From a virus (taxonomy: Duplodnaviria > Heunggongvirae > Uroviricota > Caudoviricetes), in IMG/VR virus record IMGVR_UViG_2872698443_000008: 42,559 bases of DNA; one strand, 5' to 3'. A program made the translations under genes and the position numbers. Positions 1 to 41,191 of this stretch are shown here, one piece after another. The notes beneath the pieces were generated by a model. The model saw nothing but the letters and a program-made list of their open reading frames with translations. It made no database searches and was not told the origin of the DNA. Numbering within the stretch: the first letter of the stretch is position 1; each line of letters opens with the position of its first letter.

Positions 1-2754
1 ATGAACTGGATTGGTTCTCGGTGGTGGAAATTCGACTTCCATAATCACACTCCGGCATCGGACGATTATGGAAAAGGCCCTAATCAGGCCCAGTATATGC
101 AGATCACTCATAAAGATTGGCTGCTCAACTACATGCGACAAGGCATCGATTGTGTCGCTGTCACGGACCATAATTCAGGCGCTTGGATTGATCCGCTCAA
201 GCAGGCACTCAAGGAACTGGCATCTGAGAGTCATGAAGATTATCGACCACTCTACTTATTCCCAGGTGTTGAGCTTACTGTTCAGGGGAATATCCATATT
301 CTGGCCATTTTCGGCGAAGACAAGACAACCTCTGATATCGACTCACTGCTTGGTGCGGTCAGGTATCGCGGCACCAAAGGAAAGAGCGACGGCTGCTCTG
401 AATGCTCAGCAGTTGAGGTGATCGACGAAATTGCTAGGTCAGGAGGACTTGCAATACCTGCTCATGTAGATCAGGCTAGCGGACTTTTTACGGTCTGTAC
501 GGGCAACACACTAGAGCAGGTGCTTGACAACAAATGTGTTTTTGCTATGGAGGTAACGGACCTTGCTAAAGCAAAACCGCAGCTCTATATTGGCAAGAAT
601 TTGAATTGGGCAGAGATTCTTGGAACCGATTCCCATCATCCGTCCGGTACCGGAAATCAACGCTACCCGGGTAGCCATTTCACTTGGGTAAAAATGTCGG
701 AGCCATCTTATGACGGATTACGGCTGGCGCTCGTTGATGGGGCTCTTTCACTGAAGCGGTCGGACAACTTCACTGGTGACCCAAATATCCATGGACAACT
801 TGCCATCGAAAGTATCGTGGTTGATGATGCGAAGTACTTAGGACGAGGGCAATCTTTAACTTGTCAACTGAACCCCTGGCTCAACACTATCATTGGTGGA
901 CGAGGCACTGGGAAATCGACTTCGTTGGAATTCCTGCGGATTGCTCTTAAACGAAAGGGAGAAATCCCCAAGAGCCTTGAAAAGGAATTTACCAAATACA
1001 GTCAAACTTCGAAAGACCGCCAAGATGAAGGGCTGTTAAAAGATTCCACGAAAATAACTGTAGGCTTTCGAAAAGACGGTGGCCGTTTCCGAATCACCTG
1101 GTCTAATACCGACGACATATACAGCATCGAGGAAGAGACCGCTCCCGGAGTCTGGTGTGATTCCGAGGGAGACATAGCACAACGATTTCCTGTCAGGATT
1201 TACAGCCAGAAACAGATATTCGAATTGGCAAAGCATCCCCAAGCACTCTTGCAGGTTGTCGATGATGCCCCGGAGGTCAATCATCGTGATTGGCAGCTTA
1301 AGTGGGATGAACTGGTTTCCAAATATCTCTCGCTTCGCGCCCAAGAGCGTGAAGTTCAGGCTGGGCTTCAGGAAGAATCGGTAACCAAAGGTCAGCTTGA
1401 AGACGTCAAACGCAAACTCGATGTTTTTGAAAAGGCGGGCCACGCGGATGTCCTTAAGGCTTACCAACTCAGACAGAACCAGAGTAAGGCTATGGACTCC
1501 TGGGTAACGACTTGGGAGGATTCCGCCGAACAGGTCCGAGATATTTCTGGAAGCCTACTGCCAGCAGAATTGGATTTACAATATTTCGACATTGGGAATG
1601 CGGATGACAAAGAACTCTTCGATACCATCAAGGACATCCGTGCGACGTTTGAGAAGCTTCAGACAGAGATGAACTCGATCGCGCAGCGGATTGATGATGT
1701 GAAGAACTCATGGAATCAAACTCGATCAGACTTGGGAATATCGAAAAGAATTACAGCGGCGAGCCATGAATACAACGCCCTCCTCGGTCAACTCAGCGCA
1801 GCAGACGCAGGTGATCCATCTGCATATGGTGTTCTGGTTAAGCAGCGACAAGATTTCGAAGATAAGCTCAAGGGATTCGACAAAAAGAGAGAAACTCTTG
1901 CGCAGCATCAGAAGAGCGCGGAAGAATACTTGGTCAAACTCCATGAGCATCGAGCATTGATAACCAAACTTCGTGAGGACTTTCTCAAGGATACTCTCGT
2001 CGGCAATTCATATGTACAGATCAATGTCATTCCGTTTGGAAACAAGATTACGGTTGAGGAAGAATTCCGTAACCTGATCGGCCGCAGTGGTGGCGGATTT
2101 GACCGCGACATTGGAGTTGTTGACGGGGATGAGGGCTTGCTGGCTTATTTAACGCAAGACCAATCCAATACTATGGATGATAAAATTGAGAAAATAAAAT
2201 CATCGCTACTTGCAATCCATGAAAACGATACTATGGCGGTGGAATCCTGCAAAGATCGACGTTTTGTATCCCTCATTCAGGGGCTAACTCCGGAACAGAT
2301 AGATCGAATTCAGTGCTGGTTTCCAGGCGATTCTCTGGATATCAGATATAGCCTCAAGAACGGCGAGAGTTTCAAACCCGTAGAGCAAGGATCTCCGGGG
2401 CAAAAAACGGCGGCTCTCCTTGCATTTATCCTTTCATATGGCAATGAGCCTCTTATACTTGATCAGCCTGAGGATGATCTTGATAACCACTTAATCTATG
2501 ATCTTATCGTGACGCAATTGCGTGAGATCAAACAAAAACGGCAGGTTTTAGTAGTCACGCACAACGCTAACATCGTCGTGAATGGTGACGCGGAAAACGT
2601 CATTGCCCTTGATATTCGGTCTGGTCAAACCAGAATTGTGGCGCAAGGGGGTCTTCAAGAACCTTCCATACGCGATGAGATATGCCGAGTGATGGAAGGT
2701 GGCAAAGAGGCCTTTACCCAAAGATATAAACGAATCAATGCAGCAATCAAATAG
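1..2754 (+). CDS. PHP-domain phosphoesterase fused to ABC/SMC-type ATPase with central coiled coil (917 aa); candidate single-gene defence protein
   Basis: Full-length ORF from position 1. N-terminal PHP motifs FDFHNHT, VTDHNS, PAHVD, GTDSHH. Walker A GGRGTGKST at nt 895-921. Long E/K/Q/L-rich region (aa ~400-700). C-terminal ABC signature-like SPGQKTAAL, Walker B LILDQPEDDLD (nt ~2461-2490), H-loop VVTHNANIV. Confidence 0.8.
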   Translation: MNWIGSRWWKFDFHNHTPASDDYGKGPNQAQYMQITHKDWLLNYMRQGIDCVAVTDHNSGAWIDPLKQALKELASESHEDYRPLYLFPGVELTVQGNIHILAIFGEDKTTSDIDSLLGAVRYRGTKGKSDGCSECSAVEVIDEIARSGGLAIPAHVDQASGLFTVCTGNTLEQVLDNKCVFAMEVTDLAKAKPQLYIGKNLNWAEILGTDSHHPSGTGNQRYPGSHFTWVKMSEPSYDGLRLALVDGALSLKRSDNFTGDPNIHGQLAIESIVVDDAKYLGRGQSLTCQLNPWLNTIIGGRGTGKSTSLEFLRIALKRKGEIPKSLEKEFTKYSQTSKDRQDEGLLKDSTKITVGFRKDGGRFRITWSNTDDIYSIEEETAPGVWCDSEGDIAQRFPVRIYSQKQIFELAKHPQALLQVVDDAPEVNHRDWQLKWDELVSKYLSLRAQEREVQAGLQEESVTKGQLEDVKRKLDVFEKAGHADVLKAYQLRQNQSKAMDSWVTTWEDSAEQVRDISGSLLPAELDLQYFDIGNADDKELFDTIKDIRATFEKLQTEMNSIAQRIDDVKNSWNQTRSDLGISKRITAASHEYNALLGQLSAADAGDPSAYGVLVKQRQDFEDKLKGFDKKRETLAQHQKSAEEYLVKLHEHRALITKLREDFLKDTLVGNSYVQINVIPFGNKITVEEEFRNLIGRSGGGFDRDIGVVDGDEGLLAYLTQDQSNTMDDKIEKIKSSLLAIHENDTMAVESCKDRRFVSLIQGLTPEQIDRIQCWFPGDSLDIRYSLKNGESFKPVEQGSPGQKTAALLAFILSYGNEPLILDQPEDDLDNHLIYDLIVTQLREIKQKRQVLVVTHNANIVVNGDAENVIALDIRSGQTRIVAQGGLQEPSIRDEICRVMEGGKEAFTQRYKRINAAIK

Positions 2755-2860
2755 AACGGAGTTGCACTTGAACGGCAATTGCGCTGAGCTCAATTGCCGC
2801 CAATGCTTGGTCGTTAACGTCTGCTCCTGGCACAGGGCTGCTGTTGCAGCCCTGACAACC

Positions 2861-3076
2861 TTAGACTTCAATCGATTCAGAGATCTCTAACGCATCATCG
2901 ACTTCAATGCCCAGATAACGGAATGTGCTTTCCAGTTTCTTATGACCCAACAGAAGTTGAATCACCCGAAGATTCTTGGTCAGCGGACAATAGGTGCAAC
3001 GCCATATTGAACCCTTAAGACTAAAGTGGACCGATATAGTAAGCGTTACACTGACCCGTTGCCAGCATCGAAATGC
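2861..3076 (-). pseudogene. Tyrosine recombinase C-terminal remnant (no start codon, ~70 codons open)
   Basis: Minus-strand translation reads ...TKNLRVIQLLLGHKKLESTFRYLGIEVDDALEISESIEV*, resembling the LLGH...Y box II region of integrases/Xer recombinases. Upstream frame closed by a stop at 3077-3079. Confidence 0.4.
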
Positions 3077-3344
3077 CTAAGCTACGAAAACTCTTTGACG
3101 GACATAATGTTCCTCATGTTTGCCACATGTCTCCGATTGAGCACAACTATAGTCTGCTGATGAGACTAATTATGGCACTGAGCAGACCTGCTCGCTAGGC
3201 GAGATCCGCTGTGAGCGAATTGCAGAGGTCTCGAATATGCTTGATAATAATGCTTGAAGATATAATTGGTATGAGCCTGAAAATTTATTTTTAAAGAATT
3301 ATTAAATACTGCCGATGTTAATAATTATACTAAAAAAAAGGAAC

Positions 3345-3851
3345 ATGGAATTTATGTTAAATTTAGACGAAATGTGCAGCGCATTAAGAAAACAATACTC
3401 TATAACGGCTGGTCAAGATGGTGAGAAATATGCTAGTAGATGGCTGGAAAAATCCAAGTGGAAATTTGAACATGTTGAGCAAGGAATAAATACTTTATCT
3501 GCAAACTTGAAATCATATGGGGGGAAACGCCCCGATTTCATTATTGACGCTGACGAATCCTCTTATATTCTTTTAGATGCGAAGTATCACTCAACAGATG
3601 GGTGTACCTCCTTTACACTTACTGATTGTGAAATAGGAAAGTATAGAGCACTTCAGCAATTCTTAAAAAATGTGTATAGTGATTGTACTTTCGAAGTAGT
3701 CTTTATGGTGTTTCCGAAAGAAAAAAATGGTGACGAATTTACATTTGTGAGTCTAGATGAGTTTGATAAAGGAGAGTGTACGACTCTAGCATCAAAAGAT
3801 GCAACGAAAATTAGTCTACTCTATCGAGATGACTTATGGTTTAAAAGTTGA
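3345..3851 (+). CDS. Small low-GC protein with PD-(D/E)xK nuclease-like motif (about 168 aa)
   Basis: ORF 3315-3851; ATG at 3345 follows AAGGA (ATG at 3354 is an alternative). Motif KRPDFIIDADESSYILLDAKYH (PD ... D-A-K). Markedly AT-rich relative to flanks. Confidence 0.6.
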   Translation: MEFMLNLDEMCSALRKQYSITAGQDGEKYASRWLEKSKWKFEHVEQGINTLSANLKSYGGKRPDFIIDADESSYILLDAKYHSTDGCTSFTLTDCEIGKYRALQQFLKNVYSDCTFEVVFMVFPKEKNGDEFTFVSLDEFDKGECTTLASKDATKISLLYRDDLWFKS

Positions 3852-4193
3852 TTAATAAAAAACAATTGGCTTTCACCATTTTTAATTACTTTTCCCAGCA
3901 TGCCGAAAATGTCTCATTTATTTGAATGATTGTATCTTTAATAGATATATCGCGACTATTCCTAAACTTATTTCTAGTTGTTAACAAAACTGTGTGCTAT
4001 GAATGTCTGCTGTTGGCACATAGCAGTTCTAGAGACAGTGGCGTAAAGTCATGGAGAATCGGTGGAAGGAGGTGCAAACCCTCTCATACAAAAATGCGTA
4101 AAATCAGTAACGGCTGGAAATCATTCAATACTCGCACTATCAAAAGTTCACCAGCCAACCGCGACACCTCCTGCATACGACATGTCTGCGGTT

Positions 4194-4748
4194 TTATATA
4201 ACCCTGGCTGGAAACCTCTTATACAAAGTTGACACACCAACATCATAGATAATAGCCACCTTCTGGCGAGGAACGCCTGATGCAATTAATCGCCCGGCCT
4301 GCGCCCATTGTTCTGGTGTAAGTTTGGGACGACGTCCACCAATTCGTCCCTGTGCGCGAGCAGCTTCCAGTCCAGCTTTTGTTCGTTCAACAATCAGTTC
4401 TCGTTCCATTTCAGCCAGGGCACCCATCACATGAAAGAAAAAACGCCCCATCGGTGTGCTGGTATCAATAGCATCCGTCAGGCTGCGAAAATTAACGCCA
4501 CGTTCGCGCAACTCCTCAACCAGAATGACCAGATGCCGCATACTACGTCCCAGCCGATCCAGCTTCCAGACAACCAGAGTGTCACCTGCCGATAATGTCC
4601 TGAGCAGTTTTTTCAGTCCCGGCCTTTCGGACTTTGTACCGCTTACCTTGTCTTCAAAAATCAGCTCGCATCCTGCACAGTTCAGCGCATTACGTTGTAG
4701 ATCTGTGTTCTGGTCATTTGTTGACACACGTACATAGCCAATAAGCAT
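4194..4748 (-). CDS. pin: Serine DNA invertase (Pin/Gin/Hin/Cin family)
   Basis: N-terminus MLIGYVRVSTNDQNTDLQ with catalytic Ser motif, C-terminal HTH; start taken at internal Met of ORF 4194-4784. Lies next to the invertible tail-fibre segment. Confidence 0.9.
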   Translation of the reverse strand: MLIGYVRVSTNDQNTDLQRNALNCAGCELIFEDKVSGTKSERPGLKKLLRTLSAGDTLVVWKLDRLGRSMRHLVILVEELRERGVNFRSLTDAIDTSTPMGRFFFHVMGALAEMERELIVERTKAGLEAARAQGRIGGRRPKLTPEQWAQAGRLIASGVPRQKVAIIYDVGVSTLYKRFPARVI

Positions 4749-4804
4749 GGTAGATCTCCCTGACAAAAGCAGGAATGATGCCATTTGCTCGTTATTTCTG
4801 CATT

Positions 4805-4828
4805 TTCATAAACGTTGGTTTGGGAGAA
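4805..4828. promoter_or_regulatory. Invertase crossover site (left boundary of invertible segment)
   Basis: ttcataaacgttggtttgggagaa; reverse complement TTCTCCCAAACCAACG shares the half-site plus AA core with the site at 7484-7509, in inverted orientation. Confidence 0.6.
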
Positions 4829-5164
4829 GCGGCAAAACGGAATGTGGGAACAGGGGAAAATCAGATACCAGATATGTCTGCATTTCCATCTGGCAAAAAC
4901 TGGTTTCAGTTACCAAGTGGTCATATTGTCCAAATGTTTTCGATGAATGTTTATGGGGCGGACACTAACGGAACTACAGGTAATTTCCCTATTGCATTTC
5001 CTTCAGGCGCACTGGCTGTTAGTGCCTTATGGTCAGATGGCACATTAACGGCTGCTCCGACCTTTAAACTTATGGGGTACACGACAACAAGGACATCAGT
5101 AACCTTAAAAGTATCAGCCGGAAATGGTTTGTATGGAACTATGATTATCGCAATAGGAAGATAA
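4829..5164 (+). CDS. Silent alternative tail-fibre C-terminal cassette (promoterless, no own start)
   Basis: Open frame 4775-5164 on the opposite strand to the expressed fibre, ending 1 nt before the alternative assembly gene; begins at the crossover site. Confidence 0.5.
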   Translation, partial: AAKRNVGTGENQIPDMSAFPSGKNWFQLPSGHIVQMFSMNVYGADTNGTTGNFPIAFPSGALAVSALWSDGTLTAAPTFKLMGYTTTRTSVTLKVSAGNGLYGTMIIAIGR

Positions 5165-5380
5165 TATGAATCAATATATTTATTCCCCTTCGGAAAATGC
5201 TTTTTATGCTGTTAATTTAAAAAACACTTATGAAGTAAATGGAACATGGCCTGCTGATGCATTAGATATTCCTGATGACATTTCTGTAAAATATATGGCG
5301 GAACCGCCACAAGGGAAAATCCGAGTTGCAGGGGAAAATGGTTTTCCCACATGGGTTGAAATACCGGTAATGACTCCAAC

Positions 5381-5884
5381 TTATTGATAGTGTTTTATGT
5401 TCAGATAATGCCCGATGACTTTGTCATGCAGCTCCACCGATTTTGAGAACGACAGCGACTTCCGTCCCAGCCGTGCCAGGTGCTGCCTCAGATTCAGGTT
5501 ATGCCGCTCAATTCGCTGCGTATATCGCTTGCTGATTACGTGCAGCTTTCCCTTCAGGCGGGATTCATACAGCGGCCAGCCATCCGTCATCCATATCACC
5601 ACGTCAAAGGGTGACAGCAGGCTCATAAGACGCCCCAGCGTCGCCATCGTGCGTTCACCGAATACGTGCGCAACAACCGTCTTCCGGAGCCTGTCATACG
5701 CGTAAAACAGCCAGCGCTGGCGCGATTTAGCCCCGACATAGCCCCACTGTTCGTCCATTTCCGCGCAGACGATGACGTCACTGCCCGGCTGTATGCGCGA
5801 GGTTACCGACTGCGGCCTGAGTTTTTTAAGTGACGTAAAATCGTGTTGAGGCCAACGCCCATAATGCGGGCAGTTGCCCGGCAT
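5381..5884 (-). CDS. insB: IS1 transposase InsB reading frame
   Basis: Overlaps insA 3' end in a different frame, as in IS1 (InsAB' by frameshift); sequence ...[41 protein letters not shown]... Confidence 0.9.
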
Positions 5885-6078
5885 CCAACGCCATTCATGG
5901 CCATATCAATGATTTTCTGGTGCGTACCGGGTTGAGAAGCGGTGTAAGTGAACTGCAGTTGCCATGTTTTACGGCAGTGAGAGCAGAGATAGCGCTGATG
6001 TCCGGCGGTGCTTTTGCCGTTACGCACCACCCCGTCAGTAGCTGAACAGGAGGGACAGCTGATAGAAACAGAAGCCAC
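5803..6078 (-). CDS. insA: IS1 InsA
   Basis: [43 protein letters not shown]... zinc-finger N-terminus typical of InsA. Confidence 0.9.
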
Positions 6079-6356
6079 TGGAGCACCTCAAAAACACCAT
6101 CATACACTAAATCAGTAAGTTGGCAGCATTACCGAAATACCTCCACCATCACATGAGGAACTTATTGAACAGGCCGAATCAGAGAGGCAATTATTGATTA
6201 ACCAGGCCAACGAATACATGAACAGTAAACAATGGCCCGGTAAAGCCGCTATTGGTCGTCTGAAAGGCGAGGAACTGGCACAATATAATTCGTGGCTGGA
6301 TTATCTGGACGCACTGGAACTGGTCGATACTTCCGGGGCGCCAGATATTGAATGGC

Positions 6357-6962
6357 CTACGCCTCCGGCAGTTCAGGCCAGATGACATCCGGCGCGGTGC
6401 TGGTATCTGTTGCCGTCACCGCGTCAATGTAATCCAGCACAGCGTTAAGGCGGGTTGTTTCTGCCTGCGTCAGTTTACGTCCGGCCTGTAATTTCAGCTG
6501 AATCAGACTGATGGAGGCCATTGCAGTATCAATCAGTGACTGGCGCTGTGCTTCTGCCGTGTCTACTGCGACGCTATGCTGTGCCTCAGTATCGGTCACC
6601 CATTTCTCACCATCCCATTTATCGTATGGTGTTAACGGGGCGATAGTTGTGGTATTTTCAGGGTAATCACCCGGAGCTGTGATTTCTTTTGACTCTCCCG
6701 TTTTGGTGCTATAGACGATTTCACCGCGATGGTCTGGCACATATTCCCATGAGTTAAAATTTGCAGAACGACAGATAGCATAACCCACCTTATATGTGCC
6801 AGGAGCATCTAAACAGGAATATGCGGGGATACCGACACCCACAGCAAGATATTCAATTGATGCAGAAATATACTCCCGTGTCTCACTGTCATAGTTATAA
6901 ACGGTAATCTCTCCTGCCTTTGTGGCAATAAATTTATTATTTAAGATGGCGTTATACATCAT
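6357..6962 (-). CDS. Tail-fibre assembly protein (active orientation)
   Basis: 201 aa, directly downstream of the tail-fibre gene with ATGA overlap; conserved C-terminal assembly-protein motif. Confidence 0.85.
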
Positions 6963-7786
6963 GCAGCCCTCACAATGTAATTAAATGAAATATTACGTGG
7001 GCGTGTCTCTGCTGCACCGACAATACTGGTGCTCAACCCCGTTGCCGTTCGTTTGTTATTTTTATTTCCTTCAATCAGACAGTTGTAATCATCATTACCA
7101 ATTAACGAATTGGTGGCATCAATACTGTCCGGGGACAAGGCATTAGTAGTGGAACTTAAAGTCAGCATCTCGTCTGAACTTGGAAGATTTTTTAATGGTG
7201 TTTCATTGCGTGAAATACCCGCGTAAAAAAAGGACTCATGCCTGTGAGCTTCAAAAGAGTCATCCTGAAGACTTAGCAAGGCTCGCCCCGCATCCACTCC
7301 ACGTCCATCATCCCAGCCACGAATAAATTCACCGCGTAAATCAGGCAATTTATTGGTCGGGTAAGCCTTTGCCAGTTCCGGGTATTCTTCAGCAGAAAAA
7401 GCCGCACCATTGCATTTCAGCCAGCCTGTTGGCGGAGTGGCTGAAGGCCACGGAACAGGCACCCCAACCGGTAATGCAGAGCCTTCTCCCAAACCAAGGT
7501 TTTCGAGAGCCGTTTTCACCGTGCCATCCGATTTGATATCGCCAAACGGATTCTTGCGGCTTAACAGCAGCGCACGAAGCGCGGTAAGCAACTGGTCGTG
7601 CCGCGCCTTCTCCAGGCTGGCACCGGATGCCTCCACCACGCTGCAGAGTTCTTCCTGCAACATATCAAAGTAGTCATCATCCAGATCGGTGGCAGGCGTG
7701 CCAGTCTGGGGGTTACCACGGGTAAAACCGTTCTTACCCGCGCCGAACTTATCCTTCTGCGCGGTTTTCGTGTCTATACGATGCAT
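6959..7786 (-). CDS. Tail-fibre protein (constant N-terminus outside, variable C-terminus inside the invertible segment)
   Basis: 275 aa; conserved fibre N-terminus [41 protein letters not shown]. Crossover site 7484-7509 lies inside the gene. Confidence 0.85.
7484..7509. promoter_or_regulatory. Invertase crossover site (right boundary, inside tail-fibre gene)
   Basis: ttctcccaaaccaaggttttcgagag, hix/gix-like with central AA. Confidence 0.6.
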
Positions 7787-7789
7787 GGA

Positions 7790-8374
7790 TTACTCCGGAT
7801 ATTTAAAAATTACGTAGGTATGCGACGGGCAGAGTTTGTTAAGCACACATTCGACAACGGTGTCGCCCCAGATACGCAGTGCGGAATCACAGGGATCGCC
7901 ACATGTCATCCAGGTGGTGTTGGTGGCGGCTGGCATGTTGATCTGCCAGTAATACCGCCATTCCGGCGCATTCACCGCGTCAGTACAGGCCGATGAGCAG
8001 GTGAACGTGCTTTTGTCGTATCGCGTGATGGTAGCATCTGGTCTGCCCAGGGCAGCAAGCTGTGCAAGATAAAAATCCTCGTTGATGCCACCCGACAGGT
8101 TAACCTTCGCATCCAGCCGTTGCTGGCGCTGGCGAAGGGTCTGTGTCCCTGTAGGAATACATTCATCCGGCAGGCCGCACAGACGCTCCCAGCGGTTTAT
8201 CAGTTCGGTGGTGGTGCGCGGATCCAGCTCCCGCATCAGGGCATCCGCACGCTGATGAACACGGGTTAATGACGGTGCCGTACCGGCAATCGCCGGATCG
8301 CTGGCTGACCACGCCGGACCGGGCGGCAGCAGTGCCGACAACAGACGGATGTAATCATCGTTTGTCACGTCCAT
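7790..8374 (-). CDS. Tail protein (Mu gp48-like)
   Basis: 194 aa; position between baseplate J-like gene and tail fibre; recognised as the family of e14 YmfQ-like tail proteins. Confidence 0.7.
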
Positions 8375-9423
8375 GAAATCGTCCCCAGAACCGCCAGTTC
8401 ATTTTTTGCAATGGAGATATTGTCCGCCGGTGCAAGCAATTGATGGCTGTATTCCCCGTTCGCACCGGAAATCGCCTCACTGATACGCGATACCTTCAGT
8501 TCTCCCTGCGGATAACCATCACGCAGCAGGAACGAACGCAACTCCGCGGTAATGGCAGCCCGTATTTCTGGTGTGTCCGGCGTCACGCGGATATGAAAAT
8601 CCACCGTATGCGCCGCCGGCCTGAACACATACAAATCAGAGCCTGCCACCGGGGCCAGTGGCCCGATATGTTGTCTTGCCGCCGTTTCCGTTGATTCTTC
8701 CGGAATGGGATTAATCAGGTCACTGCCGGCAATCATCACACCGACAGTCCCCGTTCCCATCCAGTGACGGTATGTCCATGCGCGGGTAATGCCGGGCACT
8801 TCTTTAGCCCAGACGACATAGTCCCCGTCAGCCCCGCCCTGCGGCGTCCAGTAATACCGCTCAATGACGCGGGCGCGCCACGTTTCCAGATCTTCAGTAT
8901 CGAATCCGCCAGTCAGGGTATCTGCCACACCGGAAGACGGCAGACCATTCACCGGCGTGACCAGGATTAATGCCGTACCGTCGTCAGCGTTACCGACCGC
9001 GCCTGCAGTTGAGCAGGCGATCGGCACGCGCAGGACTCCACCTGAGCTGGTTGCATCAGAAGTTGCCGTGTACTGAACCAGGTCATCGCGCTGAATAACA
9101 CTCCCGGCGGTCACCTTCAGGCCATCGCTGACACCTTCCCAGCGCATATACCCGCTGGCAGACGTGGCCCCCTTGCGCGGACACCGTTTCATCGCAGCAT
9201 GTCGCGCCAGCCAGGACTCATCGCACAGGTCAGGCAGCATGTTCATTGCCAGATAATCGATGTAACCGTAAACCGTATGCAGCGCCGCCGCATACACCTT
9301 TGCCCGCACGTCTTCATCCATGCGCCGGAGCGTGTCGCTGACGTCCAGCCTGGCGAATAAATCGTTACGGAGCATACTGATATTTTCTGCCAGCGTCGGG
9401 CGCTGAAATTCACTGTCCGCCAT
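8365..9423 (-). CDS. Baseplate J-like protein (Mu gp47-like)
   Basis: 352 aa; gene order and family resemblance within Mu-like baseplate module. Confidence 0.75.
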
Positions 9424-9838
9424 GCGTTATCGCACTCCACAGATCATCAAAAGAAATCATTACCGGTCCGTCACGACGCCAGAGAGTGATACTGTTACCC
9501 AGTTCATTAATCCCGGTGCGGCGGATATCCAGATCAATACGGGACACCACACCGTCATCAATCATCCATTGCAGGCATTCGCGGATATACCCCCTTACCG
9601 TCTGCACCAGCTGATTGGTCAGTTTGCCGCGCTGAAGCAGCCACAGCCGGGAGCCGTAACGGTCATTCTGTACCGCAGGCCAGGTATCCCCCCACCATCC
9701 CATCGGGACGTCGGCATTGTCATCAGGCTCCGCCCGCCGCCAGGTAAACAGGGAAATCACCACGGCGCGGGTCAGCGGATCCAGCGGTGCGCTGGCGCAG
9801 GTGCGTTTACCGTTCACCGTCAGCCACAGTTCCATCAT
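9410..9838 (-). CDS. Baseplate wedge protein (GPW/gp25-like, Mu gp46-like)
   Basis: 142 aa; position in the conserved baseplate order. Confidence 0.6.
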   Translation of the reverse strand: MMELWLTVNGKRTCASAPLDPLTRAVVISLFTWRRAEPDDNADVPMGWWGDTWPAVQNDRYGSRLWLLQRGKLTNQLVQTVRGYIRECLQWMIDDGVVSRIDLDIRRTGINELGNSITLWRRDGPVMISFDDLWSAITHGGQ

Positions 9839-10383
9839 GCCTCCATCGCTTTATCCGGTTTGTCGGTGTTACTGCCCTGACCGTTCTCTCTGTGACAATG
9901 GCCGTTATAGGCAAGCCGCATCGCTGACATGGTGGTGCCGCCGGAGTCGCACAGGTCTTTCACCTGTCCGGTCACTTCCAGGTCCATTTCAAAACGTGCT
10001 CTGGGCGCATTGCGAAACGTGATCGTTTTACCTGCACCGTCCACCACGATCCCCTCCCGGGTCAGCGTCACAGACTGCCCCTGATCGTCATAGACAGCCA
10101 CCTCACCCGTCTGCAGCCCTTTCAGGCGGTAGCGCCGGTCCGACACCGTAACAACCACCGCATGAGAACGGTCGCCATCCGGAAACAACACCACCGCTTC
10201 CGCACCGCTGTTTGCCCTTGCGGTAAAACCGTAGGGTTCAAGATGTTCAACCCCGGCTTTGGGTTCACCGGCAATCAGGGACACATCCACGGTCTGACAT
10301 TTCGTGGCGGCACTGATGCTTTTCACCACTGCCCGCCCAATCAGGCCGAGAAGTTGTCGCTGCATGGCTTCAATCGTCCTCAT
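9835..10383 (-). CDS. Baseplate assembly/central spike protein V-like (Mu gp45-like)
   Basis: 182 aa; position and composition. Confidence 0.65.
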   Translation of the reverse strand: MRTIEAMQRQLLGLIGRAVVKSISAATKCQTVDVSLIAGEPKAGVEHLEPYGFTARANSGAEAVVLFPDGDRSHAVVVTVSDRRYRLKGLQTGEVAVYDDQGQSVTLTREGIVVDGAGKTITFRNAPRARFEMDLEVTGQVKDLCDSGGTTMSAMRLAYNGHCHRENGQGSNTDKPDKAMEA

Positions 10384-11462
10384 CAGAACGGGTCCTCCTG
10401 TACTCTGGCTTTTTTCTTTTTCCGCGCGCCGGGGGCTTCAGGTTCAGGCAGATAAGCATCAGGCGGGCCGACACGGATTTCCGTCAGGGTGCCGTTCTGG
10501 TCCTGAGTAAACGTGACTTCCGAAACAAGCAGTTCGGTATTGTCAAAACCACAGACCGGATCAAAGACAATCACCCGCTGGTTGGGTTGCCACAGCGTAC
10601 CGTTACCCTGTCGCCAGCCCTGCACCACATAGGTGGTTTCATCCGTCCGCGCCGCCCGTTGCCGGGCTTCAAAGTCAGCACGCGCAATACAGCCTGCCCC
10701 CGTAGCCTGCCCTGTCTGCCTGATATACATCGGACGGTAACGGGCAATAAATGCGTCCTCTGTGCGGGCCCGCAGCGCGGTGGTGGTGGCCTCACCGAAA
10801 TCATCGTCGTTTCCGGCACGCTGCCCCGCCACCTGGTAAACAGAAAACCGCTCCCGGATACTCTTCTCCGTATCACAGGAAAGGATGTTTTCCCCAAGTA
10901 CCAGCGCGGTATGTGCCCGCGTTGAGCCAATACCGCCAATCACCAGCCTGCCGTGCGGGTCGTCGTAAGCCAGCGCCTGCTGCTGACCGAGTATTTTGTT
11001 GATTACCTCAATCACCGTTTCACCGTGATCAGGCTGAACATCAGGAATAACACCCGACGGCGCACCGCTGTTCACCACCTCAATACCGAAAGGCGCAGCA
11101 AGCGCCTGCGCAATCTGCACCAGCGAGCGTCCGTTAAACTGTGTCGGTTCGGCTGCACAGTCAATCAGGTCAGCCGTCAGACTACGTCCGGCAATACCGG
11201 TGCTGACCGAACGGGCATCGTACCGAACGGGCGTCGCCTCCACCCAGCCGGTGATCACCAGCTCATCACCAATCAGCACTTCCACTTTTGAACCGTTTTT
11301 AATGCGCGGCTGAAGCGTGGTGATACCCTCATCTCCCGGCCACTGGCGAGTGATCTCCACACTGAAATCCCGCGCCAGCCGTTCAATACCGGCACCGATG
11401 CGCACCGATGTCCAGCCATTCCACTCCCGGCCATTTACCCGTAGCGTGACGTTATCGTTCAT
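10383..11462 (-). CDS. Tail/baseplate hub protein (Mu P-like, P2 gpD-like)
   Basis: 359 aa, N-terminus MNDNVTLRVNGREWNGWTSVRIG...; gene order. Confidence 0.7.
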   Translation of the reverse strand: MNDNVTLRVNGREWNGWTSVRIGAGIERLARDFSVEITRQWPGDEGITTLQPRIKNGSKVEVLIGDELVITGWVEATPVRYDARSVSTGIAGRSLTADLIDCAAEPTQFNGRSLVQIAQALAAPFGIEVVNSGAPSGVIPDVQPDHGETVIEVINKILGQQQALAYDDPHGRLVIGGIGSTRAHTALVLGENILSCDTEKSIRERFSVYQVAGQRAGNDDDFGEATTTALRARTEDAFIARYRPMYIRQTGQATGAGCIARADFEARQRAARTDETTYVVQGWRQGNGTLWQPNQRVIVFDPVCGFDNTELLVSEVTFTQDQNGTLTEIRVGPPDAYLPEPEAPGARKKKKARVQEDPF

Positions 11463-12829
11463 TGCACTGGCACCTTCAGAGGGATCACCGGCACAAAGCC
11501 GGGATGCGTAATGGCATTACGCCGGATAATGTCCGCGTCACGCGCCGCGTTATCAAACCAGGTCGCCGCCAGCACCAGCGCGGGTAAAACCTCATCCGGC
11601 GTGCGCTGAATGATCCGTGCAGACTGTTCAAGGCGCGTGTTGATATCCGCATTCAGATCTGCTTTCACCCGGCGCAGCGCCAGAAACAGCGCATCACTGG
11701 TTGTACGGGACAACTCCTTATCAATTGCCGTATTCAGTGTGTCGCGAATGTCAGTCAGTTCTTCCCACGTCGGCAGGTCAACTGTGTTTTTCACCGCCGG
11801 TGCATTGTTCAGTGCCGGATGCGTGACGGAAGGCCAGCCAGTGCTCTGCGCAGGTGTTGTTGCCTGCCCCACTGCGGCATTCTGCATCACCGCGGAAGTT
11901 GTTGGCGTAGGCAATCGGGTGACGGCATACGCCGCTTCGCTGATTGCGGTCGTACGAAGGGTGCTGGCAACCACGTTACGCTGCTGCGTAGCCGTGGCGG
12001 TGGTTTTACTGTCCGTTTTCCAGACGCCGCGCGGTTGCAGATCGCTGCCGAGGCTGACACCGGAAAGCGTTTTGATCATGGTGACCAGGTCGCTGGCGTT
12101 ACCATAAAGGCGTTTCCCGGTACGCCACATTTTCTGCACCTGCTCAACGAAATTTTTGCCTGACGATGGCGGCGGCAGAAGTACCGAGATATCCCCCTGC
12201 AACAGCCTGGCGGCATCCGATACGGCAGAATCCACCACTTTCATCGCATCAGAAACATACCCAAGCATTGTGCTGGCATTACCGACGACGTCGTTCTGCA
12301 CAAAATCTGCCACGCCATCGATACTGAAACTACTGAAACTGTCACTGATGCAGTCATCCAGTGCAGAACAGGATGACATCAGCGTCTGCGCCGTCGCCGC
12401 ACCTGATGTGGGGTAAGAGAGTTCTCCCGCTTCGACAAACTTCAGGTCAAAGCGGACAATACGCCCTTCACTCTTCGATGTGCTGACCCGAACCTCTCCG
12501 TCAACACAGACTTTCAGCTCACCGTAAGTCGGATGGACAAGCGTGCCGGGACCGGGTTTATTCAGCGCGTCAATCAGGCGATCGCGCTGGTCAAAGCAGT
12601 CATCTCCCACCACATAAGCCGTGATGGACGGGCGGAAAGTGATTTTCCCCAGGTCTTCGGTATAGGGTTTGTCGCGGTTCGGGTATTCGTGCGTTTCCAC
12701 ACGACGACCGGTTCCCGCACTTTCTTCTTCAACCTTAAACGGCACACCGCGAAATGACGCGTCCTGAAGTCTGTCTTTCCACGTCATATAAACTCCGTAC
12801 ATAAAAAATCCCACCGGAGTGGGACTCAT
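11459..12829 (-). CDS. DNA circularisation protein N-like (Mu gp43-like)
   Basis: 456 aa, N-terminus ...MTWKDRLQDASFRGVPFKVEEE...; sits between tape measure and baseplate hub. Confidence 0.75.
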   Translation of the reverse strand: MSPTPVGFFMYGVYMTWKDRLQDASFRGVPFKVEEESAGTGRRVETHEYPNRDKPYTEDLGKITFRPSITAYVVGDDCFDQRDRLIDALNKPGPGTLVHPTYGELKVCVDGEVRVSTSKSEGRIVRFDLKFVEAGELSYPTSGAATAQTLMSSCSALDDCISDSFSSFSIDGVADFVQNDVVGNASTMLGYVSDAMKVVDSAVSDAARLLQGDISVLLPPPSSGKNFVEQVQKMWRTGKRLYGNASDLVTMIKTLSGVSLGSDLQPRGVWKTDSKTTATATQQRNVVASTLRTTAISEAAYAVTRLPTPTTSAVMQNAAVGQATTPAQSTGWPSVTHPALNNAPAVKNTVDLPTWEELTDIRDTLNTAIDKELSRTTSDALFLALRRVKADLNADINTRLEQSARIIQRTPDEVLPALVLAATWFDNAARDADIIRRNAITHPGFVPVIPLKVPVQ

Positions 12830-12847
12830 TAACAGATTAATTTTTCA

Positions 12848-14681
12848 TTACCTGCCAAAGCGCGTATAGCCAACATCATGGCTGACATCAAAACCGCTGG
12901 ATCGCGTTTCCATAACCCGCATACCCGGAGGCGAATTCACAAAAGAGACCTTGATCTCACCATCAACTTTTGGCGCAGAAGCTTTGTTAATCATGAAGGG
13001 ATTCAGGCCTGTGGCACCGGAGGCGTTGTTTGACTGAGCCGGATCTACCGCCGGATAAGGTGTGTATCCCCGCGCCGGTATTCCCGTCCCATAAGCATCA
13101 TAAGCACCCGCGCCCCACTGCGCAGAGTTAATGGCATCGACCGTGTCACCGGAACTGTCGGTAAACCACTCAATAATTGGCTTCAGCTTGTCCCACATAT
13201 CCTGAAACCACTTAACAACCGGTCCCCAGTTATTGATCACCATCCCCAGCGGCGACCAGGCAAAAACCTTCTTAAGAAGTTCCCAGCCAGTCTCAAAATA
13301 AGGACCAATGGTTTCCCAGAGTTTCTTAAAATAAGGTCCGACAACATCCCAGTTAGTGATAATTAATCCCGCAGCGAGGGCTATCGCCGTCGCAATCATG
13401 CCAATCGGCGTCATCGACATGATCCTGCTGACAATACTGATGGCACCGCCAACGCCCATCAATCCCAGTTTCAGAATCGCAAGACCGGCAGCAAGCCCGA
13501 CGACGCCGCGAATAACCCGGGGATTTTCATCCGCAAACTTCGTGAATTTTTCCCCTAACTCCCCAGCCATTGCGTGATATTTTTAGCGTCACCAGAAAAT
13601 GCGCCGCCAATAGCCGCAAGGCCGTTAGTTGCGGTCCCCGTCATTGCCTCCCACAGGTTGGACAGCGTACCAAGCTGAGCCTGAACACGTTTATTCAGGC
13701 TGGCCTGTTTATTCATCTTCTGCTGGATCTGATCGTAGCCATCCTTTCCTTTATCGATCAGCGCATTGACCACCTGAAGGGTTTCGGCATCATCACCAAA
13801 TATTGCCTTAAGTACACCGGTTCGCTTAACGTCGGTCAGTTTTCGCAGCTTTGCCAGTTGCCTGAACATGTTATCAAGACCGCCAAAACTCCCTTTGCCA
13901 TCAGTAAAATCGAGCTGTACCCCGAGTTTCTGGCGGGCCATGATTTTATTGACGTCCCTGATTTTCTTAACGCTTAATCCGGACTGGATAACTTTTCGCA
14001 GGGCATTACCTGCCGACTCCCCGTTCATCCCCATCTGATCCATCATGACACTGATGGGGCAAGACTCTGTGCAGCCTGAAGACCGTCCTTATTCACCATT
14101 TTCAGAACAGAACTGGTTTTAGTGAAGAAGGACAACATGTTGGTATCATCAACGCCCAGATAAAACGCCTTCTGGATAGTGTCGAACAGCCCCATCATGT
14201 CTTCTGACGCCGTTCCGGTAGCATCCTGCATCTTTGCAGCAAACTCAGCAGCCGCTTCCGGTGTTTTTTTCAGTTGTACCGCAAGATAAGCTGTCGCTTT
14301 ACCCACACCACCAAGAATGTTTTCTGCCGGGATCCCCTGACGCACCAGCATCTGCATCATGTTCTGGAAATCAGCCGTTGTACCGGGTAGCTGGTTACCC
14401 AGGCCAATAGCCAGTTTATTGATGTCCTGAAAGCTCTTTCCAACCTCGCCGTTCGCATCCATCATGGCGACTTTCAGCCCGGTGGCGGCGTTTTCCTGAT
14501 CGGCATAAGATTTCAGGGAAAGCGTCAGACCCGCTGCCAGTCCGCCACCAAGCGCCAGCCCACCCTGTGACGCTTCTTCCGCCTGGCGTTTAAATCCCCG
14601 GATTTTCTTTTGCATTTTCGACAGCGCGGGAGAAAGCCTGTCGACACCGGTGATCAACGCCTTAAGCTCAAATTCAGCCAT
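12848..14681 (-). pseudogene. Tail tape measure region split into three consecutive overlapping ORFs (212+163+240 aa)
   Basis: ORFs 14043-14681, 13555-14046, 12848-13570 overlap by 4 and 16 nt. Tape-measure-like composition (Ala/Gly-rich, C-terminal hydrophobic stretch). Either frameshifted or genuinely split. Confidence 0.55.
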
Positions 14682-15092
14682 GTGTGCGTTTCTCCTGCTC
14701 TATCCTGTTTGCCTGACTGACCAGCAAGGGAATTTCACTGATCGGCATATTCAGCAATTCGAAGGGATTAATGCGCCAGTAACTGGCGCAGTCAAAGAAG
14801 CGATCAGTGAGGTATTCAGCCGTCAGGCCTGGAGGAAAAAACCGGCCACAAGCCACGCCGCTGCATTCAGGTCTGCCGGAGACATCTGGTCGACAGAGCT
14901 TTGCGGCACTTTCGCCAGCCGCACGATGTATTTCGATACCACATGCGCCAGAAGTCTGACGGACTCATCCTGATTCATCTGGTAGGGATATCCCAGCTCG
15001 CGGACATCTTTCCCGGTGGGCTCATCAAACTCCAGTACGGAGAGTGTCTCGCCATGAGCGGTAATCGGTTTCTTTAACTCAAGCTCTTTCAT
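14674..15092 (-). CDS. Tail assembly chaperone pair (two overlapping frames, possible programmed frameshift)
   Basis: ORFs 14823-15092 (89 aa) and 14674-14856 (60 aa) overlap directly upstream of the tape measure, as for G/GT-type chaperones. Confidence 0.55.
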
Positions 15093-15447
15093 TACTGGTA
15101 ATCCCCTTCTTCACCGTGGAACTCAAGATCGACCGTGCCTTCTTCGGCATTATGGTTCGCTTCGCCGTGCAGCCAGGCAGACGACAGTACATAGACCTGA
15201 CCGTTTGCCAGCTCGGCAGTGATGGTCATCTCATCAGACGAGGTGATTTTGCTCACCGGAAAATTCTTCGGCACCTTGAAGGTCCCTTTGACATAAGGCG
15301 CACGGTGAGTTTCCTTGCGGTCCACTGAACCGTCCAGGCCGATGATGTCATCATTGACCGTCCTGTTCATGGCACCTCAATGCCGCCGGTCAGCGATAGC
15401 TGCTGACCGTCAATTTTGAAATAACAGGTTCCCCCGATACGGGCCAT
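15092..15447 (-). pseudogene. Tail tube protein with a frame break after about 25 codons
   Basis: ATG at 15447 gives MARIGGTCYFKIDGQQLSLTGGIEVP then TGA; the rest of the tube (NRTVNDDIIGLDG...) continues in another frame as ORF 15092-15370. Confidence 0.6.
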
Positions 15448-16940
15448 TATGCAGACTCCTCTGAATACTGAAGACGGAACTGGTTAACCACGGCAAAGAC
15501 ACGCAACTGGTTAACATAGTCAGGCGGGAACAGCGTGTTCAGGCGGTTCGGATCGCTGGCATCACGCTCCACAACCAGGTACTGCTTAAACAGTTCGTAG
15601 TTTTCCACGATCCCCCGCACGCTCAAGCTGACGGTAGGTTGCCAGCAGTTCCCCTTTGATCACCGCCGGTGTGACAATCGCCTGACCGGGACCAAAGCGG
15701 GTACCGTCGCTGGCAAGCTTGTGACGCCCGTACTTACTGGTAATGACGGATTTCAGTTTGCGCAGCACATACGCGCTGGTATGCAGCGTCTCGCTGTCGA
15801 GGTAGCTGTTATCCGCAACACCGTAAGCGTTTTTTCCTGTACGTGGTGACATCACGCTGAATGCGCAGCACCCCGCTTTCGACATACGCCGTTGCCACGC
15901 CATGAGACAGCAGGGTCTGTTGTTCGGTCATCGTGAACCGTTTCCCCTTCGGCGCAGGCAGCATACCCACCAGCTCACCGGTCTGCGTGGGACGTGCCGG
16001 ATCGTTGCGAATAAACACCGCTGCGCGGGCGGTACGGCTTGCCGCCAGCTCGTCGGCAGGCGTCTGGGTCTCTTTTTCGTATCCCGCCAGGGTAATGTGC
16101 TGCTGGTTAAACTGGTCACCTGCGTTCACCAGTTCTGACAGCGTGCCGATCTTTGCCGTATACACATGACCATACAGCTGACGCGCATAGCTCCAGCGAC
16201 CGCTGGTATCGTTCATCTCTGTCACCAGCGTGTTAACGGAGGCCGTGTCGTTGAACGGCAGGCCAATATAATCAAACGGCTCATCCGCCATTGCAGCCAC
16301 CGCGCCGGTGAGAACCGGAGCGCCCGTTCCGGCGCTCCCCGTCGCCACAGCAATCTGTACGCCGCTGGCAGCACTTCGCCCCCACCAAAGCCGTAGTAAT
16401 TGAGGCTGACAGGAATTTCATTCCCGCAAAGCCCTTATGACGCGCGGTCAGCGTGACCACGCCTGCCGAAGATGAGGCCGTAAACGCAGGGCCGGAACGG
16501 CATTAATGGCATCTTTGATACTGCTGGCAATCGTCGTGACGTTATCGCGTTGGTTCACCGGTGCCTGCACGCGGGTACGTCCCACATAAACATTCACCGT
16601 GCCGGTTTCGTTGCCGCCCCGGTCACCGTCAGCGTAACCGTTGCCGCCGCGCCCGTGGATTCAGGAACGGCAATTACATACAGTTCACCAAACGGGTCGG
16701 TCTGGCGATAAGCCTCGACCATACGCGCCAGCTGACTTCCCGCACCACAAATCTGGCGTGCATAGTCTGCGATGGCATCAGCACCAGACTGTTGGCAACA
16801 ATCTCTGCACCGTTATTGGCATGACCAATCAGCAGCGATGCTCCGCTGTCCTGTGCAGTATTCGCCGCCGAGTTATCCATTTCCGCATAAAAAATCGGAA
16901 CCAGCGTATTCGACGGAATGGTGTTAAAGCTTATCGTCAT
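15447..16940 (-). pseudogene. Tail sheath gene fragmented by several frameshifts
   Basis: N-terminus MTISFNTIPSNTLVPIFYAEMDNS at 16940. Further sheath-like pieces in ORFs 15809-16348 and 15586-15903. C-terminal frame ...IVENYELFKQYLVVERDASDPNRL... reached only after a shift at a poly-G run; stop overlaps the tube ATG. Confidence 0.6.
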
Positions 16941-17830
16941 CGGTATTCACCTTTTTATTCACGCGCCGGATATCACCGCTGCTTCACGGCGCAGCCAGTA
17001 GTTGTTCTCATCAACATTTCGCCCCTCGGCGGCAAAAGGTCGCCGCGGGCAGGGTCAGGAACTGACCGCCTTTAACAGGTTTCACAAACATGAAGATTCT
17101 CAGGAAGGAAGGGTTATTTCGGTGTGATGTTCGATATCGCCGTCAGGCCGTTACCGGATCGAGATAATCAACATCAATCGCCAGCGTTCGCAGTTCATCA
17201 GACTGTTCAGGTCATCCTGCTGGCGGGTATCGTCTTCGGTCAGCTCGCTGATGACCGAAAAATCGAACTGATAAATCAGCTCATGACGATTCAGATCCAG
17301 CAGCGTGCCGCCGTCATAAGTAATCGGGTTACCGCACGCTTCCGGGTTCCAGCCCAGCATGGCCTTAAAGAGCATCTGCGGACATCGTCCACCACATCAT
17401 ACGAGCAAACTGACCGCGCTCATCACGCCCGTTACTCAGTATGACAACCACGGAGAAGCCCTCTTTCAGCTCCTGCCAGTAGTCGGTCTGGCTTTTGTTT
17501 TCTCCCCGGAGAATCATCACCCGTGTCACAACCATATGCCGCCGGGAGTTTCAGCTTTCCGACCTCCGGCAGATTTTTGAACTGGGCCGCGCCTGCAACC
17601 CGGTTTTCAAAATACGGACAACGGCACGCAGGCAGTGCAGCAATAACAGGCGTCAGTTTCATCTGTGTCGTCGCTCCGGCTTCAGTGATTTACGCAATTC
17701 CCGCGCCCAATAGCCGTCCAGCTGCGGTTCTTTTCAAGCGTTTCCACCATGAAGTTATTACGTGGAGCCAGTCGCCAGCCGCTGCCACCGGATGCACCAC
17801 GATGATGGCTGCGACGACGCTTTGCCCCTC
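16941..17830 (-). pseudogene. Tail completion / virion protein gene(s), fragmented
   Basis: Only short ORFs (17432-17662, 17151-17375) of coding character between the HK97 gp10-like gene and the sheath; no intact gene fills the interval. Confidence 0.35.
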
Positions 17831-17833
17831 GCC

Positions 17834-18172
17834 TCACGCCATAGAACAAAAAAGCCGGATAAAAATCACCGGTGATACGGCGGTTTCCCTCTCCATTACG
17901 CTGGTTAGGGCTATACGTGCCATAAAACCAGGGCGATGTTTACTGGCTCTGGGTACCATATACCCAATCGAACGTGCCAGGCGTCCGGTCTGATAACCGG
18001 GGTTTTCACCCGGTGCCGACCGCGCACGGCGCATCACCAGCCGACGGGCATCACGCATATGACGCTGACCAATCGTGACAAACGCCCGCCGGACACGGGC
18101 GCGGTTAAAGCGCATCTCCGCGGGCTGCTGAAAATCAACGTGCAAAAAGGAAGTCGTCATTGTTGCCTCCAT
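17834..18172 (-). CDS. Tail-component protein (HK97 gp10-like)
   Basis: 112 aa; position after head closure gene. Confidence 0.55.
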   Translation of the reverse strand: MEATMTTSFLHVDFQQPAEMRFNRARVRRAFVTIGQRHMRDARRLVMRRARSAPGENPGYQTGRLARSIGYMVPRASKHRPGFMARIALTSVMERETAVSPVIFIRLFCSMA

Positions 18173-40061: not shown

Positions 40062-41101
40062 AGGCTGAAGCATGGCGGGTCAGCAAACTTGGTGAAATAC
40101 CTGATATAACGTTCGAGGAAGCTTGTGTCAGGTGGCTTGAAGAGAAAGCACATAAAAAATCACTGGACGATGACAAAAGCCGGATCGGATTCTGGCTTCA
40201 ACATTTCGCAGGAATGCAACTAAGAGACATTACTGAATCAAAAATTTATTCAGCAATGCAGAAAATGACGAACCGGCGTCATGAGGAAAACTGGAAACTC
40301 AGGGCAGAAGCATGCAGAAAAAAAGGGAAACCTGTTCCAGAATACACGCCAAAACCAGCGTCCGTTGCAACGAAGGCTACGCATCTTTCATTTATAAAGG
40401 CCCTACTAAGAGCCGCAGAGCGTGAATGGAAAATGCTGGATAAGGCACCAATTATTAAAGTGCCTCAACCAAAGAATAAACGGATCCGCTGGCTGGAGCC
40501 CCATGAAGCACAAAGGCTGATTGATGAATGTCCGGAGCCATTAAAGTCTGTTGTTGAATTTGCACTGGCAACAGGCTTAAGACGCTCGAACATCATCAAC
40601 CTTGAATGGCAACAAATAGATATGCAGCGCCGGGTGGCATGGATAAACCCGGAAGAGAGTAAATCAAACCGCGCAATTGGCGTTGCGCTGAATGATACTG
40701 CATGTCGCGTATTGAAAAAACAAATCGGGAATCATCACCGTTGGGTATTTGTGTACAAGGAAAGCTGTACCAAACCAGACGGAACGAAAGCGCCAACAGT
40801 AAGGAAGATGCGGTATGACGCAAACACAGCCTGGAAAGCGGCGCTGAGACGGGCTGGTATTGATGATTTCAGATTTCACGACTTGAGACACACCTGGGCA
40901 AGTTGGCTGGTTCAAGCCGGAGTCCCGTTGTCAGTGTTACAGGAAATGGGAGGCTGGGAGTCTATCGAAATGGTTCGTCGATATGCTCACCTTGCACCTA
41001 ATCACCTTACCGAACACGCACGGCAAATAGACTCGATCCTGAACCCATCGGTCCCAAATTTGTCCCAGTCAAAAAATAAGGAAGGTACTAATGATGTGTA
41101 A
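39938..41101 (+). CDS. int: Tyrosine integrase (P22 Int type, thrW-specific)
   Basis: 387 aa, [40 protein letters not shown]...; catalytic region ...[20 protein letters not shown]...VRRYAHL; ends 15 nt from the tRNA. Confidence 0.95.
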
Positions 41102-41115
41102 CTTATTGATTTAAA

Positions 41116-41191
41116 TGGTGCCGATAATAGGAGTCGAACCTACGACCTTCGCATTACGAATGCGCTGCTCTACCAACTGAGCTATATCGGC
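41116..41191 (-). tRNA. thrW: tRNA-Thr (anticodon CGU)
   Basis: Reverse complement reads GCCGATATAGCTCAGTTGGTAGAGCAGCGCATTCGTAATGCGAAGGTCGTAGGTTCGACTCCTATTATCGGCACCA. Confidence 0.9.

Follow-up and report, generated by a model that had tools for sequence, protein, structure and literature searches.

Frameshifts in the tail genes of an SfV-like Escherichia coli prophage very probably reflect a low-quality stretch of consensus in CP029687.1

Results

The window analysed here is a stretch of 42,559 nucleotides that carries a prophage, with an integrase gene at its right end adjoined by a tRNA-Thr gene (41116-41191) and proA. The tail module shares 96.8-97.8% nucleotide identity over 6.5 kb with those of SfV, SfI, SfII and vB_EcoM-689R6, and the gene order is kept. 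These are temperate phages of Shigella and E. coli that have an HK97-type head and a Mu-type contractile tail, and that insert at tRNA-Thr by proA. Judged by its sequence, the element qualifies as an SfV/SfI/SfII-like E. coli prophage with a Mu-type tail. It differs from the SfV group in that the window contains no O-antigen modification genes, and in having an invertible tail-fibre segment near the left end of the window, with a gene for a TrlF-family ATPase beyond it. Relative to the corresponding prophage of S163-2 there is also an IS1 insertion in the tail-fibre region, lying within an alternative tail-fibre assembly gene.

The tail-module genes all lie on the minus strand, and their positions (Table 1) were transferred from the annotated, intact prophage of S163-2. 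This mapping confirms the labels of sheath, tube and tape measure that an earlier sequence-only reading had given to the genes. In SfV, SfI, SfII and vB_EcoM-689R6 every tail gene occupies one frame, whereas six genes are broken in the window, i.e. those encoding the tape measure, the tube, the sheath, the DUF2635 protein, the tail terminator and a 168-aa neck or tail-completion protein. The tape measure gene now reads as three overlapping open reading frames (12848-13570, 13555-14046 and 14043-14681), as had been described, and two indels account for this; an unbroken homologue of 611 aa is annotated in S163-2, FORC_081 and SfI. The interruption of the tube gene that had been placed after codon 25 corresponds to the loss of a single G.

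Table 1. Tail-module genes and the affected stretch, in window coordinates
Feature	Position	Strand	Events and remarks
Tail tape measure	12848-14681	-	2 events: C5 to C4 at 13560, G5 to G4 at 14055
Chaperone -1 frame extension	14674-14856	-	Slippery site GGT TTT TTC near 14837-14845; intact
Tail assembly chaperone (Phage_TAC_7)	14823-15092	-	0 events; identical to homologues
Tail tube	15092-15447	-	1 event: G3 to G2 at 15370, at about codon 26
Tail sheath	15447-16940	-	9 single-base indels: 15612, 15830, 16361, 16431, 16485, 16548, 16554, 16609, 16769
DUF2635	16924-17091	-	3 single-base deletions: 16975, 17030, 17068
Tail terminator	17100-17662	-	10 events, among them scrambled patches 17524-17532 and 17625-17631
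168-aa neck/tail-completion gene	17659-18160	-	3 events: scrambled patch 17707-17715, G4 to G3 at 17907
Probable low-quality consensus patch	13560-17907		CP029687.1 3657135-3661482; compared with FORC_081, S163-2 and TUM9754

The same prophage is found at the same site in S163-2 (CP058709.1; from a pangolin in China), FORC_081 (from a chicken in Korea) and TUM9754 (from Japan), three independent assemblies belonging to one clone with the window. All six genes that are broken in the window are annotated as intact in the three of them, each in a single frame. Base-by-base comparison with S163-2 over the full 42.5 kb finds 28 indel events, comprising 32 gap columns, and not one clean substitution; the only three mismatches each lie within a scrambled indel patch. 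Every event falls between 13560 and 17907, and the remaining ~38 kb of the window contains no indel at all. Outside this interval S163-2 differs only by the one IS1 and by inversion of the tail-fibre segment, and no larger deletion separates the two prophages. The rest of the window has the sequence of S163-2, and its genes for head, baseplate, lysis and regulation are therefore intact, being base-for-base the same as those of the unbroken prophage in that strain. The contrast drawn by the sequence-only reading, between clustered frameshifts in the tail genes and intact modules elsewhere, is thus upheld. Its right-hand limit at 17830 was set slightly too short, since the last indel is at 17907, in the gene that starts at 18160.

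At all 28 sites S163-2, FORC_081 and TUM9754 have the reference state, with no lesion in common with the window, and the isolated phages SfI and vB_EcoM-689R6 carry the reference state there too. Lesions that are real in this lineage, a frameshift in yagU and a stop codon in paoA located just upstream, are by contrast shared with S163-2 and TUM9754.

The indels have a distinct statistical signature. All 28 events lie in 4,348 of ~41,800 aligned bases (scan-type P ~1e-25), and to observe 28 indels with no substitution would have P ~6e-17 were indels to account for no more than 20% of the differences that arise naturally. From left to right the density of events is 1.1, 3, 14 and 13 per kb, and it then falls abruptly to zero. 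Each of the 18 simple deletions shortens a G or C run that is 2-5 bases long (P ~4e-5). Among runs of at least three bases, 13 of 94 G/C runs were struck, compared with one of 120 A/T runs (Fisher P ~1e-4). The hit rate was 50% for runs of five, 10% for runs of four and of three, and 1.7% for runs of two; most of the struck G/C runs are only 2-3 bases long. At three spots there are 2-4 indels inside 10 nt and outside any run, creating the scrambled patches.

We have also sought the same lesions in wider collections. Over 1-13851 and 1459-22829 (compared span 1-22829) the window matches GenBank CP029687.1 at 100% identity, and any errors are therefore located in the public record, where none of the six broken genes has a protein product listed. 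Identity to the module does not rise above 99.3% in any record of the RefSeq complete set for E. coli, a set in which no RefSeq version of CP029687.1 is present. Nothing similar was found in ~1,100 E. coli genomes having the module, where the best identity is 99.3% and the gap is explained by the indels themselves. Look-up of the exact products of fragments 16674-16940, 17834-18172 and 13555-14046 gave no match in 153 billion gene positions. The exact product of fragment 14043-14681 matched only an unrelated prophage variant that has one indel in common with the window. The indel in question is the G5 to G4 change at 14055, which an independent Logan assembly from short reads also shows in that variant; this site can therefore genuinely mutate. 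As a separate observation, the RefSeq search shows that TUM9754 gives a match at a second place as well.

Discussion

We conclude that the frameshifts are very probably errors of base calling or consensus within a low-quality stretch of ~4.3 kb in CP029687.1 (GCA_003443795.1), and that the real tail genes are most likely intact and identical to those of the clonal relatives. We favor a low-quality consensus over decay of the prophage because the damage consists of indels only, is private to this record and is tightly localized. The stretch would most likely have been built from very few long reads and never properly polished; it might have originated as a contig end, a gap fill or a long-read bridge. 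Spots with several indels within 10 nt resemble noise more than mutation. A point against this explanation is that many strikes are on runs of just 2-3 bases, shorter than in the classic homopolymer error of a polished assembly, and so imply a very low effective coverage. The gradient in density and its sudden end would hint at reduced read depth or quality along the stretch.

Residual errors in long-read assemblies are mainly homopolymer indels that cause frameshifts and that locally survive polishing (PMC8812927; PMC12007338). The errors described with Polypolish (PMC8812927) and Kastor (PMC12007338) resemble those seen here in being single-base indels without substitutions, biased to mononucleotide runs and with more deletions than insertions. 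They likewise leave fragmented genes that are annotated as pseudogenes, and particular stretches stay faulty after polishing. Unlike that residue, the errors of the window are packed into one 4.3-kb stretch at up to 14 per kb, reach down to runs of two bases and have a strong G/C bias, which points to a locally near-unpolished stretch rather than to residue spread over the genome.

The sequence-only reading had offered two possibilities, that the prophage is tail-defective or that the stretch carries homopolymer sequencing errors. The events being private, indel-only, confined and graded in density, they favor the latter and speak against the former, with the qualification that the word homopolymer is only roughly right, because most of the struck G/C runs have 2-3 bases and three scrambles fall outside runs. 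In practice, a widespread SfV-like prophage shows six of its tail genes as apparent pseudogenes in CP029687.1 through what is probably a local failure of the consensus, and it would be wrong to score it among defective or tail-less prophages or to take it for a case of pseudogene accumulation. The value of the finding is mainly one of data hygiene, in flagging this record. It also suggests a quick test for such artefacts that needs no reads, in which differences from a near-identical independent assembly are asked to be indel-only, private and spatially confined.

Genuine pseudogenization, giving a tail-defective cryptic prophage whose tail genes decayed by real frameshifts, is in our judgment very unlikely. 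The frameshifts do stand in the deposited sequence, and since an unrelated assembly from short reads has G5 to G4 at that tape-measure site too, natural frameshifts do occur in the module. Some true erosion of the prophage is plausible, since in this strain an IS1 has genuinely inserted into an alternative tail-fibre assembly gene. E. coli K-12 contains cryptic or defective prophages (e14, Rac, DLP12 and CP4-57) that make no complete virions, and genuine decay proceeds by large deletions, IS insertions and substitutions, with lesions that are common to related strains and affect all modules. In the window the damage, unlike that of such decay, is made up of indels alone, is private and keeps to a single stretch. 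A first inactivating hit would free the whole prophage to decay, yet all the events are in 10% of the element; the sole lesion outside those 4,348 nt is the single IS1. They are accompanied by no clean substitution anywhere and by no larger deletion, three spots have several indels per 10 nt, and none is shared with the three clonal relatives, unlike the lesions in yagU and paoA. Alternatively, the indels would be real products of a single episode. Break-associated, DinB-dependent mutagenesis generates localized -1 frameshifts with a bias to G/C runs, and the -1 bias at G/C runs, the tight localization and the density gradient seen here would by analogy resemble it. Real indels would amount to a remarkable localized frameshift shower, a bacterial 'mutation shower' of the indel type that silenced only the contractile tail. 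That all or most of the 28 are real, one localized event such as break-associated error-prone synthesis having strewn -1 frameshifts on G/C runs across 4.3 kb of the tail module while sparing the other 38 kb, we regard as highly improbable, and a real local burst of such changes, for example by error-prone break repair of the Pol IV type inside the prophage, as scarcely credible. About 28 events in 4.3 kb would exceed any reported per-site rate by orders of magnitude, and the process also makes base substitutions, none of which is seen against S163-2. Nor would the process account for the insertions, or for the scrambled multi-indel patches that lie outside runs, and the ~1,100 genomes with the module offer no parallel. 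Three further candidates were rejected. A decayed second copy that recombined with the prophage would have brought in substitutions, as would reads of a similar second prophage mixed into the assembly, and none is present; a mismatch-repair mutator would be expected to act genome-wide and to leave transitions, whereas 38 kb of the window are perfect.

The tail genes might instead remain expressed by functional recoding, through programmed ribosomal frameshifts or phase-variable tracts, but the likelihood of this is negligible. At none of the 28 sites does any homologue have a split gene; the relatives all encode single uninterrupted open reading frames, by which the reading is in effect already refuted. 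Up to ten shifts in one gene of 561 nt would be undecodable. The tracts struck were 2-5 bases long, in contrast to the long repeat tract of a phase-variable contingency locus, and are 1-5 bases after the change; among the relatives examined no variation in tract length was found, the one exception being an unrelated variant with the G5/G4 difference at 14055. In favor of recoding, the module does hold one genuine programmed -1 site, where the tail chaperone gene ends. Programmed -1 frameshifting is well known in tail assembly chaperones, as in G/GT of lambda and E/E+E' of P2, and the prophage gene shares with these a slippery heptamer and a downstream -1 open reading frame. The gene carries this heptamer (T TTT TTC) at its end, and the -1 frame then runs to the start of the tape measure. 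An overlapping -1 open reading frame is annotated both in phage vB_EcoM-689R6 and in CP029687.1 (60 aa). Intact here, genuine and conserved, this programmed frameshift is separate from the 28 lesions, and it is the sole frameshift of the region that the relatives conserve.

Comparison with the source record and clonal relatives

A search by exact protein identity pointed to the GenBank record CP029687.1 (GCA_003443795.1), which matches window 1-13851 and 1459-22829 at 100% identity, the whole damaged stretch included, with window base 1 at base 3,643,576 of the record. It lists no protein product for the six broken genes. The record, a 4.70-Mb single-contig chromosome, was perhaps kept out of RefSeq; among the complete E. 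coli genomes there it has no 100% counterpart, and the region is matched at 99.3% at best.

A complete temperate prophage lies on the minus strand of the window, and its tail module shows 96.8-97.8% DNA identity to those of the Shigella/E. coli temperate phages SfI, SfII, SfV and vB_EcoM-689R6 (689R6). In the annotation of these phages the gene order is head closure, neck/tail completion, tail terminator, DUF2635, sheath, tube, tail chaperone, tape measure, DNA circularisation protein and baseplate. The same prophage occupies the same site in three independent complete genomes, those of S163-2 (pangolin, China), FORC_081 (chicken, Korea) and TUM9754 (Japan), and the annotation of each shows every tail gene as one unbroken ORF.

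Intact annotated genes of E. coli S163-2 were placed onto the window (Table). The gene labels of the sequence-only reading are correct, and the ORF list agrees with the breakage it described: the tape measure is three ORFs, the tube stops after ~25 codons, the sheath is in multiple fragments and beyond 16941 there are only fragments. Clustering in the tail genes is likewise upheld, but the damage reaches 17907, slightly past the end at 17830 that had been proposed.

Aligned with S163-2 over its full 42,559 bases, the window has 28 gap openings (32 gap columns), all within 13560-17907. There are no clean substitutions over this length, and each of the three mismatches lies inside a scrambled indel patch. 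Comparison with FORC_081 and TUM9754 gives an identical list of sites, and at the single-base sites the reference state is also that of the isolated phages SfI and 689R6. Set against intact homologues, the 28 indel events are private to one assembly.

Features of the window and indel events in the tail genes
Feature	Window position	Strand	Indel events	Remarks
TrlF-family AAA ATPase	1-2754			917 aa
pin recombinase gene	4194-4784			Pin/Gin-type serine recombinase; adjoins invertible segment
Invertible tail-fibre segment	4810-7502
IS1	5366-6133			768 bp; InsA and InsB ORFs; 8-bp target duplication GAAATACC
Tape measure	12848-14681	minus	2
Programmed -1 frameshift, tail assembly chaperone	14674-14856	minus		slippery site ~14837-14845; conserved
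Tail chaperone	14823-15092	minus	0
Tube	15092-15447	minus	1
Sheath	15447-16940	minus	9
DUF2635	16924-17091	minus	3
Tail terminator	17100-17662	minus	10
Neck/tail-completion gene	17659-18160	minus	3	168 aa
tRNA-Thr	41116-41191			with integrase and proA at right end of window

Nature and origin of the indels

In eighteen simple events a run of 2-5 bases is shortened by one G or C, and in four a run gains a single base (C4 to C5, C3 to C4, T5 to T6 and T to TT). The others fall at three spots (17524-17532, 17625-17631 and 17707-17715), each with 2-4 indels within ten bases. With the run composition of this stretch taken into account, 18 of 18 deletions being of G or C has P ~4e-5. Among runs of at least three bases, 13 of 94 G/C runs are hit vs 1 of 120 A/T runs (P ~1e-4), and the rate by run length is 50% for 5, 10% for 4, 10% for 3 and 1.7% for 2. 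Indel density rises from 1.1 per kb at 13.5-15.3 kb to 3 per kb at 15.3-16.3 and 14 per kb at 16.3-17.2, is 13 per kb at 17.2-17.95, and is then zero over the next 24 kb. For 28 uniformly placed events to share one 4.3-kb interval has P ~1e-25.

E. coli genomes diverge naturally for the most part by substitution, and the decay of a prophage that has lost function affects every part. The changes found here consist of indels alone, occur in a single assembly and are crowded into a tenth of the element, with a density gradient and some scrambling, unlike either process. For this reason the deposited record very probably contains a low-quality consensus patch, and the true prophage would have intact tail genes. 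The verdict on the clustered frameshifts is that they do not reflect real biology. Indel errors left in a consensus from long reads or low coverage are a known class; they are mostly of homopolymer length, break reading frames and can persist locally after polishing (PMC8812927; PMC12007338), and the window's indel pattern fits that class. The density gradient and abrupt end suggest a stretch made from very few reads, which might have been a former contig end, a gap fill or a long-read bridge.

The sequence-only reading had offered sequencing error or a tail-defective prophage, and the former is supported. Genuine pseudogenisation of the tail genes is contradicted by the lack of sharing with the clonal relatives, the lack of clean substitutions and the confined distribution, and we regard it as most improbable. 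If -1 frameshifts had truly arisen at G/C runs in one local burst, by break-associated error-prone synthesis for example, an unprecedented density of events without substitutions would be required, and the insertions and scrambled patches would stay unexplained; we give this reading hardly any credence. With a consensus artefact as the preferred explanation, CP029687.1 3,657,135-3,661,482 should be flagged as unreliable.

Frameshift sites in the chaperone and tape-measure genes

The chaperone gene ends with the slippery site GGT TTT TTC (heptamer T TTT TTC), followed by a 60-codon extension in the -1 frame whose end overlaps the tape-measure start codon. This is the only conserved frameshift in the tail module, and it is intact despite its T6 run. 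All homologues have single ORFs across the indel sites, which excludes functional recoding there.

One of the 28 changes, G5 to G4 at 14055, recurs in a short-read (Logan) assembly of run SRR17847163, at ~10620-10640 of contig SRR17847163_236, which is found in two samples. This contig represents another variant of the prophage, 129 substitutions away from FORC_081, and has none of the other indels. Its tape measure is split into 212 and 399 aa, and all other tail genes, sheath, tube and terminator included, are intact. Since the change occurs in an independent short-read assembly, the longest G run of the tape-measure gene can genuinely slip. It may be a natural frameshift hotspot, and there is a small chance that the change at 14055 is real in the window too.

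Other features of the element and its surroundings

Apart from the indel patch, the window differs from S163-2 only in the inverted tail-fibre segment and the IS1. The IS1 has inserted into the invertible segment's alternative tail-fibre assembly gene, at present silent, and is not in S163-2, FORC_081 or TUM9754. S163-2 and FORC_081 have the segment inverted relative to the window, TUM9754 has it in the same orientation, and the crossover sites differ in their bases at 4814 and 7498. The segment resembles an active host-range switch.

An exact 63-bp direct repeat is present at window 41099-41161, overlapping the 3' part of tRNA-Thr, and at 7553-7615 of L003, ~420 bases left of the window start. 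It resembles an attachment-site repeat. If it is one, the integrated element reaches left beyond the window, and its cargo would include the TrlF-family ATPase and the small genes adjoining.

Just upstream of the window, yagU has lost one base and paoA contains a stop codon in both CP029687.1 and S163-2 (L013, the upstream stretch of CP029687.1, 305 and 1308), and the annotation of TUM9754 gives the two genes as pseudogenes. In contrast to the private tail-gene indels, these lesions are genuine and inherited in the lineage.
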